Of a stretch of DNA of 64,000 nt, positions 32,753 through 32,915 are shown piece after piece (position 1 is the first letter of the stretch; every line of letters begins with the position of its first letter). Under the pieces are notes generated by a model. That model was given only the letters and a program-made list of their open reading frames with translations, was not told the origin of the DNA and made no database searches. Position numbers and translations under genes: made by a program. Origin of the DNA: an uncultured Rickettsiales bacterium (GTDB lineage Bacteria; Pseudomonadota; Alphaproteobacteria; Rickettsiales; CANDYO01); the NCBI GenBank assembly GCA_964356785.1, contig CAYHIS010000001.1, positions 144,998-208,997 on the forward strand, in the 5' to 3' direction.

Positions 32753-32915
32753 AATACCAATCCTCACCTATAATTGAACGTTTATTAATTCGATTTTTGG
32801 TATTCTCCAAAAATAAAAAAGCATTTAATATAACCAATATTCGCAGCTTTTTTCTTATTTGTATAATACTCAAACCTCAAATCCTAAACGCTCAATATAG
32901 GTGAGGATTGGTATT
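32753..32915 (+). repeat. Palindromic interspersed repeat, family R2, full copy (about 163 bp)
   Basis: About 31-bp terminal inverted arms: aataccaatcctcacctataattgaacgttta / taaacgctcaatataggtgaggattggtatt. The interior closely matches the reverse complement of the interior of 43961-44122. Confidence 0.85.

Follow-up and report, generated by a model that had tools for sequence, protein, structure and literature searches.

R2, a multi-copy palindromic repeat of a groundwater Rickettsiales-like bacterium, combines invariant end motifs with a hypervariable box that stays paired

R2 is a lineage-specific, interspersed palindromic repeat of an uncultured, AT-rich (31% GC), Rickettsiales-like alphaproteobacterium from groundwater. 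It was found at distinct loci in 8 full and 8 partial copies. The full copies measure 161-162 nt, and each folds into one long hairpin whose arms keep their pairing while part of their sequence changes from copy to copy. We interpret R2, with moderate confidence, as a non-autonomous, MITE-like palindromic element that is moved in trans and with ends that are recognized in part by sequence and in part by paired structure.

We started from a stretch of 64,000 nt of contig CAYHIS010000001.1 (hereafter, the window), in which a first-pass annotation had reported two full copies in opposite orientation. Alignment and motif counts bore this out (Table 1). When copies A and B were aligned using MAFFT, the mean column identity was 88% over 192 columns, and 141 nt of ungapped sequence were 82% complementary. 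Further, interior motifs of R2 (20-21 nt) gave 2-3 matches in motif searches, against 0.03-0.05 expected by chance. Copy A proper comprises 161 nt (32754-32914) with a single W base on each side. The truncated copy of 48 bp that had been described earlier is real and represents an inverted right-arm remnant, which is 97% complementary to the right arm of copy A and possesses the same box type; nhmmer prolonged a weak match of this remnant to approximately 24513. An additional arm fragment had been proposed at 25876-25910, where we detected only a weak arm-like match at 25868-25895, so that it remains a possible fragment.

Table 1. Positions of R2 and R1 features, given in window coordinates unless a contig of the metagenome assembly is named.
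Feature	Position or contig	Strand	Remarks
R2 full copy A	32753-32915	+	nhmmer E 6e-47
Terminal heptamer ATACCAA, copy A	32754-32760	+	partner TTGGTAT at 32908-32914; pi = 0 (n = 8 full copies)
Hypervariable 8-nt box TCCTCACC, copy A left arm	32761-32768	+	partner GGTGAGGA at 32900-32907
Conserved TATAAYTG motif, copy A left arm	32769-32776	+	stop codons in two of the three inward frames
Sigma-70-like match TTCGCA-16-TATAAT, copy A	32840-32867	+	TTCKCA-16-TATAAT in all copies, directed outward through the right arm
R2 full copy B (162 nt)	43961-44122	-	nhmmer E 3e-50
R2 solo right-arm remnant, inverted	24434-24488	-	nhmmer E 2e-10
Possible decayed left-arm fragment (TATAC-AAGTCTATCCTATAATTGGGTAT)	25868-25895	+	3 mismatches in 20; nhmmer E ~1-4, not significant alone
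Further full R2 copies	L088, L090, L091, L094, L104, L106
R2 copies truncated by a deletion or the end of a contig	L100, L108, L114
R2 solo arms	L090:8849-8895, L091:2501-2537, L108:6681-6730
R1 copies	6052-6163, 19384-19495		79% identical over 112 nt

Exact protein matches placed the window in groundwater metagenome assemblies named Hain_H43_02um, and further copies were collected from the same assembly using a pattern scan, followed by BLAST and nhmmer. Nine other contigs of this assembly carried R2 (6 full and 5 partial copies). Their GC content was that of the window (0.31), their coverage was 4-5x, and none overlapped the window. The summed contig depth on copy A was 100-300 over the element and 6-9 in its flanks (two runs, at 80% likeness), which corresponds to roughly 15-40 copies of R2 if all of them are from this genome. 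The copies of L091 and L106 were identical at 162 of 162 positions and had unrelated flanks, which shows that R2 moved recently. Conversely, the solo arms and a deletion of the right arm in L114 indicate that R2 copies decay.

The flanks of the full copies read T-W/ATACC...GGTAT/W-A. The W base was the same on both sides in six of the eight copies (50% expected by chance; not significant), and in L106, whose copy is identical to that of L091, the flanking TWA differed between the two sides. As judged from these bases, the flanks are compatible with a target duplication of TWA or TA. In three runs, neither contigs that skip the element (empty sites) nor an excision joint were detected at copies A or B. 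The loci of relatives (NadA 76-79% identical) were not syntenic at the insertion points, and approximately 100 kb from five related organisms contained no copy of R2 or R1. We rejected the idea that the box stems from the target or is complementary to it, since L091 and L106 share the box TTCCAGCC in unrelated flanks. An inner element nested in an older short palindrome (ATACCAA-box/box-TTGGTAT) was not supported: no such palindrome without insertion was present in 140 kb.

The layout of R2 was the same in all full copies. The left half reads (T)W-ATACCAA, the 8-nt box, TATAAYTG and RRCRTTTA, followed by an asymmetric interior that is conserved and has an apical loop of 5 nt; the right half continues from this interior into TAAAYGYYCARTTATA, the partner of the box and TTGGTAT-W(A). 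Nucleotide diversity (pi) among the eight full copies was 0 in the terminal heptamers, 0.03 in TATAAYTG and 0.05-0.11 in the interior, whereas it reached 0.43 in the left and 0.35 in the right arm of the box. The box was thus 4-5 times as variable as the loop region. The copies fell into two interior subfamilies. Within one of them, in which the interiors were 94-99% identical, the box was ATCTATCY, GTCCATCC, ATCCATCC, TTCCAGCC or GTATATCC. The ends therefore do not vary freely, contrary to what the first-pass annotation had implied: covariation lies mostly within the 8-nt box, between conserved motifs, and at a few other positions. The same annotation had taken the hairpin as an argument against a terminal inverted repeat (TIR) recognized by a transposase. 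This is a false dichotomy, since the termini ATACCAA/TTGGTAT and the TATAAYTG motif are invariant, as expected for TIRs that are recognized by a protein. We also observed the terminal motif a third time, in the interior: at 32798-32804 of copy A, 37 nt inward from the left end, and likewise placed in other copies, it reads TTGGTAT in subfamily 1 and TTGGCAT in subfamily 2. This internal motif may be an extra binding site or may base-pair with the left terminus, which would give an alternative, clover-like fold.

Each copy was predicted to fold into one long hairpin with z-scores of -10 to -16, in agreement with the earlier description of R2 as an interspersed palindromic repeat. The RNA folds of copies A and B had free energies of -54.4 and -67.8 kcal/mol (z = -11.3 and -15.6), and the DNA folds had -36.3 and -43.0 kcal/mol (z = -10.2 and -13.3), respectively. 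Inverted arms of about 31 bp had been noted, and the outer 30-31 bp indeed formed near-perfect inverted repeats in every full copy; however, the hairpin is not confined to them but spans the whole 162 nt, and the consensus of the eight aligned full copies comprises 59 pairs. Mismatches and bulges of the inner stem were kept in all copies. Translated inward, the arms contain stop codons in two of the three frames (TATAATTGA), and the third frame is open for approximately 48 codons in all copies.

We then analyzed covariation in the alignment of the eight full copies (two from the window and six from the same metagenome). Standard pairs accounted for 96.8% of the 471 pair cells. Nine pairs were altered on both sides, compared with a mean of 5.6 in shuffled alignments, and one of 500 shuffles reached nine. 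Counted by cells, 21 were altered on both sides, compared with a shuffled mean of 7.7, and none of 500 shuffles reached 21. Shuffling ignores the relatedness of the copies, whereas sliding the partner keeps it; when the partner was slid by 1-3 columns, 0-1 compensated pairs were found instead of nine. Further, we dealt the right arms among the seven distinct, related copies (the duplicate copy was dropped) and counted cells without Watson-Crick pairing in the outer 30 pairs. The own arms gave 11 such cells in 210, and arms dealt among copies gave a mean of 32 (p = 0.0016); all 1854 derangements of the right arms gave at least 18. The excess of compensatory change held with six further copies included, and the arm differences quoted in the first-pass annotation were correct and compensated in each copy. 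It is pairing, rather than sequence, that is kept in these parts of the arms.

The compensated changes included transversions (UA to AU or GC), indicating that they did not pass through a wobble intermediate. G.T and A.C mismatches were found five and eight times, without strand bias, and this balance gives no indication of an RNA that acts as one specific strand. Unpaired positions in the outer arms were found in L094 (five), L104 (two) and L088 (two), and the uncompensated changes in these three were private to single copies. In contrast to these, compensated box types were common to several loci (TTCCAGCC at two, TCCTCACC at four), indicating that compensation preceded transposition and was inherited through it.

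Shared compensated variants, private uncompensated changes, the kept bulges of the inner stem and the like build of a sister family, R1 (see below), fit an enzyme that reads structure. In the mechanism that we favor, an enzyme encoded elsewhere in the genome would move R2 in trans. It would read the conserved motifs as sequence and would need the arms to be paired, either as a single-strand hairpin or as an extruded cruciform. Only those lineages in which the box is complementary on both arms would go on proliferating, and one-sided changes would represent private decay after insertion. We infer the whole of this mechanism from the comparison of seven distinct, related full copies, and no mobilizing enzyme was found in the approximately 140 kb of this genome that we read. 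Further, selection of double mutants alone poorly explains the high variability of the box, unless the interior is constrained or conversion between the arms helps.

Conversion is central to the main rival account, in which R2 is an ordinary MITE moved by double-strand cut and paste, for example by an IS630- or IS5-type transposase, and its arms are alike owing to a mutational process and not to selection. We consider this account possible, although unlikely. By template switching at quasi-palindromes, or by mismatch repair of an extruded hairpin, changes in one arm would be reverted or copied across, so that the box would drift at an approximately neutral rate and still pair. The far higher variability of the box is expected for neutral drift beside constrained protein-binding motifs, and a block of three positions on one arm, which distinguishes copy B from L104 and L094 (CTGGGCA and TTGAACA, respectively) among copies that are otherwise 98-99% identical, resembles a tract of conversion or recombination. 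The invariant termini, moreover, resemble classical TIR ends, and the T-W...W-A flanks with their partly equal W bases are compatible with a TWA or TA duplication. However, the inner-stem mismatches and bulges, which are kept in all copies, indicate that the arms were not swept; L104 and L094 retain 2-5 unpaired positions in the outer arms; and the two arms of the box are separated by approximately 140 nt, a long distance for template switching. Against an ordinary MITE it also counts that no transposase was found among the ORFs of the window. Structure reading and conversion of the arms are not mutually exclusive.

This negative result agrees with the earlier statement that the window lacks a transposase: domain searches of its large ORFs detected no transposase domain. 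Further, arm pairs at IS-like spacing were absent from approximately 140 kb of this genome, and no RAYT gene was present in the window or in the other loci read. At the gathering threshold, Rfam models matched only tRNAs, and no family was at or near threshold for R2; at a relaxed threshold, the only matches were generic long-hairpin models of plant miRNA precursors, far below threshold, and these were rejected. Searches of 72,556 plasmids and 50,697 phages gave no match to R2. A scan of GTDB representatives with CTCAAAYCTCAAATYCTAAA, a set without the host organism, gave 84 stretches in unrelated MAGs, which we attribute to chance; none of the 84 gave an nhmmer match at E<=1e-3. A profile of the open frame of R2 matched no protein in a database of 5.8 billion clusters, and hence insertions of R2 into genes, of the kind seen in Rickettsia palindromic elements (RPEs), are not on record.

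The window contains a sister family, R1, with two copies. The palindrome of the copy at 19384 extends over 103 nt from ATACC to GGTAT, and a single hairpin is predicted for each of the two copies, with free energies of -27 and -38 kcal/mol. R1 has the same termini as R2 (ATACC...GGTAT) and a conserved interior of its own that is unrelated to that of R2. Its subterminal box co-varies, with TTTAATATT/AATATTAAA in one copy and TATCACACT/AGTATGATA in the other (the variant opposed to TTTAATATT is also written TATCAYACT). The contig depth of R1 was 40-110, compared with 7 in the flanks, indicating that R1 is also multi-copy. A bolder form of our interpretation, which we regard as rather improbable, is that R2 and R1 are both moved by an enzyme that reads the terminal motif together with a folded hairpin or cruciform of free stem sequence, as in attC sites or REPINs, with the box serving as a copy-specific zip. 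If so, the box would make the two ends of one element find each other, and a Rickettsiales-like lineage would possess a structure-guided system of transposition.

R2 copies were found at gene boundaries, where they overlapped the ends of coding sequences, as described previously. They usually lay 1-11 nt from the ends of ORFs or overlapped them by up to 39 nt, between convergent, tandem or divergent genes and in either orientation. The neighbors were housekeeping genes (mfd, gltA, gltX, smpB, cyaY and nadA) and also glycosyltransferase genes. Copy A lies between the divergent start codons of GT90 (32749, minus strand) and GT11 (32996, plus strand); copy B lies between the convergent 3' ends of cyaY (43679-43999, plus strand) and nadA (44133-45110, minus strand). 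The last 12 codons of cyaY (IPNLSYNWAFRI*) and its stop codon are inside copy B, and the match to the CyaY profile ends just before. The ATG of a terminase-like ORF follows the remnant at 24434-24488 at a distance of 4 nt. Effects on the host would be passive. The arm stops in two of the three frames and a purine-rich, Shine-Dalgarno-like stretch would let insertions into very short gene junctions survive. The purine-rich box of the right arm (GGTGAGGA, GGATGGA and similar) may replace a ribosome-binding site, and, judging by distance, it may do so where a start codon follows at 4-5 nt, as in GT90 (32749) and in L088.

Selection by the host for an RNA or DNA hairpin that acts on neighboring genes, as a stabilizer of 3' ends, an RNase III site, a terminator or a carrier of a promoter, is in our judgment very unlikely. 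The folds are very stable, copies B, L104 and L106 are located between convergent 3' ends, the internal promoter-like match is conserved, and Correia and ERIC elements have effects of this kind (PMC10969869). Yet the copies occurred in all gene arrangements and both orientations, with the promoter-like match in sense in three of eight copies and antisense in five, and this match was within the expectation for an AT-rich background. No terminator-like site (a GC-rich stem with a T-run) was detected at copy A or B, and a role as promoter or terminator is therefore not supported. The lack of strand bias in the wobble mismatches, the lack of an Rfam family and the free decay seen in solo arms and truncated copies also speak against selection by the host.

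We give almost no credence to the view that the covariation is an artefact of relatedness, in which a few subfamilies derive by chance from symmetric masters without any pairing force: there are two interior subfamilies, only seven distinct full copies and shuffle controls blind to relatedness, but at least five box types occur within one subfamily, each of them paired, the slid controls that keep relatedness lose the signal, and R1 behaves in the same way.

Several observations concern the surroundings of the copies and the host. Copy B coincides with a break in synteny. The window has R2 and a convergent cyaY after nadA; in the relatives L120, L123 and L124, a giant ORF of 1870-1992 aa comes after FKBP-nadA. 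In L123 and L124, lpdA and ftsW are also retained next to FKBP-nadA. Two paralogues of the dihydrolipoamide dehydrogenase type (830-2233 and 46298-47689) share DNA stretches that are 72-77% identical. An ORF resembling a terminase large subunit (24492-25847; Terminase_6C / TIGR01630) stands isolated among housekeeping genes, bracketed by the R2 arm at 24434-24488 and the weak fragment at 25868-25895, which are in the same orientation; it may be the remnant of a gene-transfer agent or a prophage. The surroundings of copy A form a cluster of three genes for glycosyltransferases (30282-34588: Glyco_trans_1_2, GT90 and GT11). Two of them, GT90 and GT11, represent families that are better known in eukaryotes and are unusual cargo for a small alphaproteobacterial genome.

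The closest relatives of the host by NadA are 76-79% identical, and the named matches were a 'Rickettsiaceae bacterium' MAG (71%) and an alphaproteobacterial MAG. The loci of the relatives encode RickCE and 17-kDa-antigen domains. An ankyrin-repeat protein in the window (35101-36747) and a RickCE-type deubiquitinase in the relative L119 (17353-19518) suggest a host-associated, intracellular lifestyle, whereas an MCP chemoreceptor (40498-42192) points the opposite way, to a motile stage.

Reduced, AT-rich intracellular bacteria commonly contain small palindromic repeats. To our knowledge, the movement of such repeats is mostly unexplained, and we know of no mobilizing enzyme for RPEs. In R2, invariant motifs flank a hypervariable paired box, and R1 is built alike, which separates the parts read as sequence from those read as structure. 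This partition provides a concrete handle for finding the mobilizing enzyme. R2 also breaks metagenome assemblies of its host and alters gene 3' ends, for instance that of cyaY. Its location at a synteny break, moreover, matters for the annotation of these MAGs.

R2 fits the generic description of a MITE in that it is shorter than 500 bp, is non-coding, occurs in multiple copies at unrelated loci and has terminal inverted repeats. In its working, it is closest to REPINs, doublets of REP sequences that form hairpins and are mobilized by RAYT transposases (Bertels & Rainey 2011; PMC3116915) and in whose hairpins compensatory changes are common (PMC3116915). Like R2, a REPIN is a non-autonomous, extragenic interspersed repeat that forms one long hairpin, with conserved end motifs, a less conserved paired part carrying compensatory changes, and singlets as remnants. 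R2 is, however, not a REPIN by membership. Its arms are AT-rich and start with ATACCAA, and it has neither the short GC-rich stem-loop of REP sequences nor the GTAG/CGTC head; it is 162 nt long, compared with approximately 70-110 nt for REPINs, and its interior is conserved, whereas that of REPINs is variable.

The first-pass annotation had likened the behavior of R2 to that of RPEs (Ogata et al. 2000). RPEs share with R2 a Rickettsiales-like host, a size of approximately 105-150 bp, palindromy, AT-richness and the absence of a linked transposase, and R2, like them, has one reading frame that is open throughout. According to the summaries in PMC10969869 and PMC3184786, RPEs are frequently inserted in frame inside protein-coding genes. 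It is in this hallmark that the likeness fails: R2 copies are located at gene junctions and encode only short C-terminal tails, in-frame insertions into genes were not found, and no protein matched the open frame. bcr1 of the Bacillus cereus group, a mobile repeat of approximately 155 bp (Klevan et al. 2007, as summarized in PMC3184786), is also similar in principle. According to that summary, base-pair compensatory changes keep its structure double-stranded and, as in R2, relatives do not share its genomic distribution (PMC3184786). bcr1 has direct repeats of 5 bp and is transcribed, and its sequence and host phylum are unrelated to those of R2.

Correia (NEMIS) and ERIC elements resemble R2 in being palindromes of 100-160 bp with TIRs, located at gene boundaries, with promoter-like boxes and hairpin transcripts. 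In contrast to R2, each such family has a uniform TIR sequence, and a TA duplication is established for them but only compatible with the data for R2; effects of RNase III or RNase E and IHF sites are described for Correia and ERIC elements. In attC sites, the recombinase reads a folded single strand with the cores R''/R' (RYYYAAC / GTTRRRY). The likeness of R2 to attC is one of principle only, namely short core motifs and a stem of free sequence with kept pairing; R2 has no R''/R' cores, no cassette array or intI nearby, housekeeping genes as neighbors and a conserved interior. Repeats of the intrinsic-terminator type, such as SPRITE, have a GC-rich stem and a T-run, unlike copies A and B. 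R2, with R1 as its sister family, is a new family of a known kind of element and does not constitute a new class.
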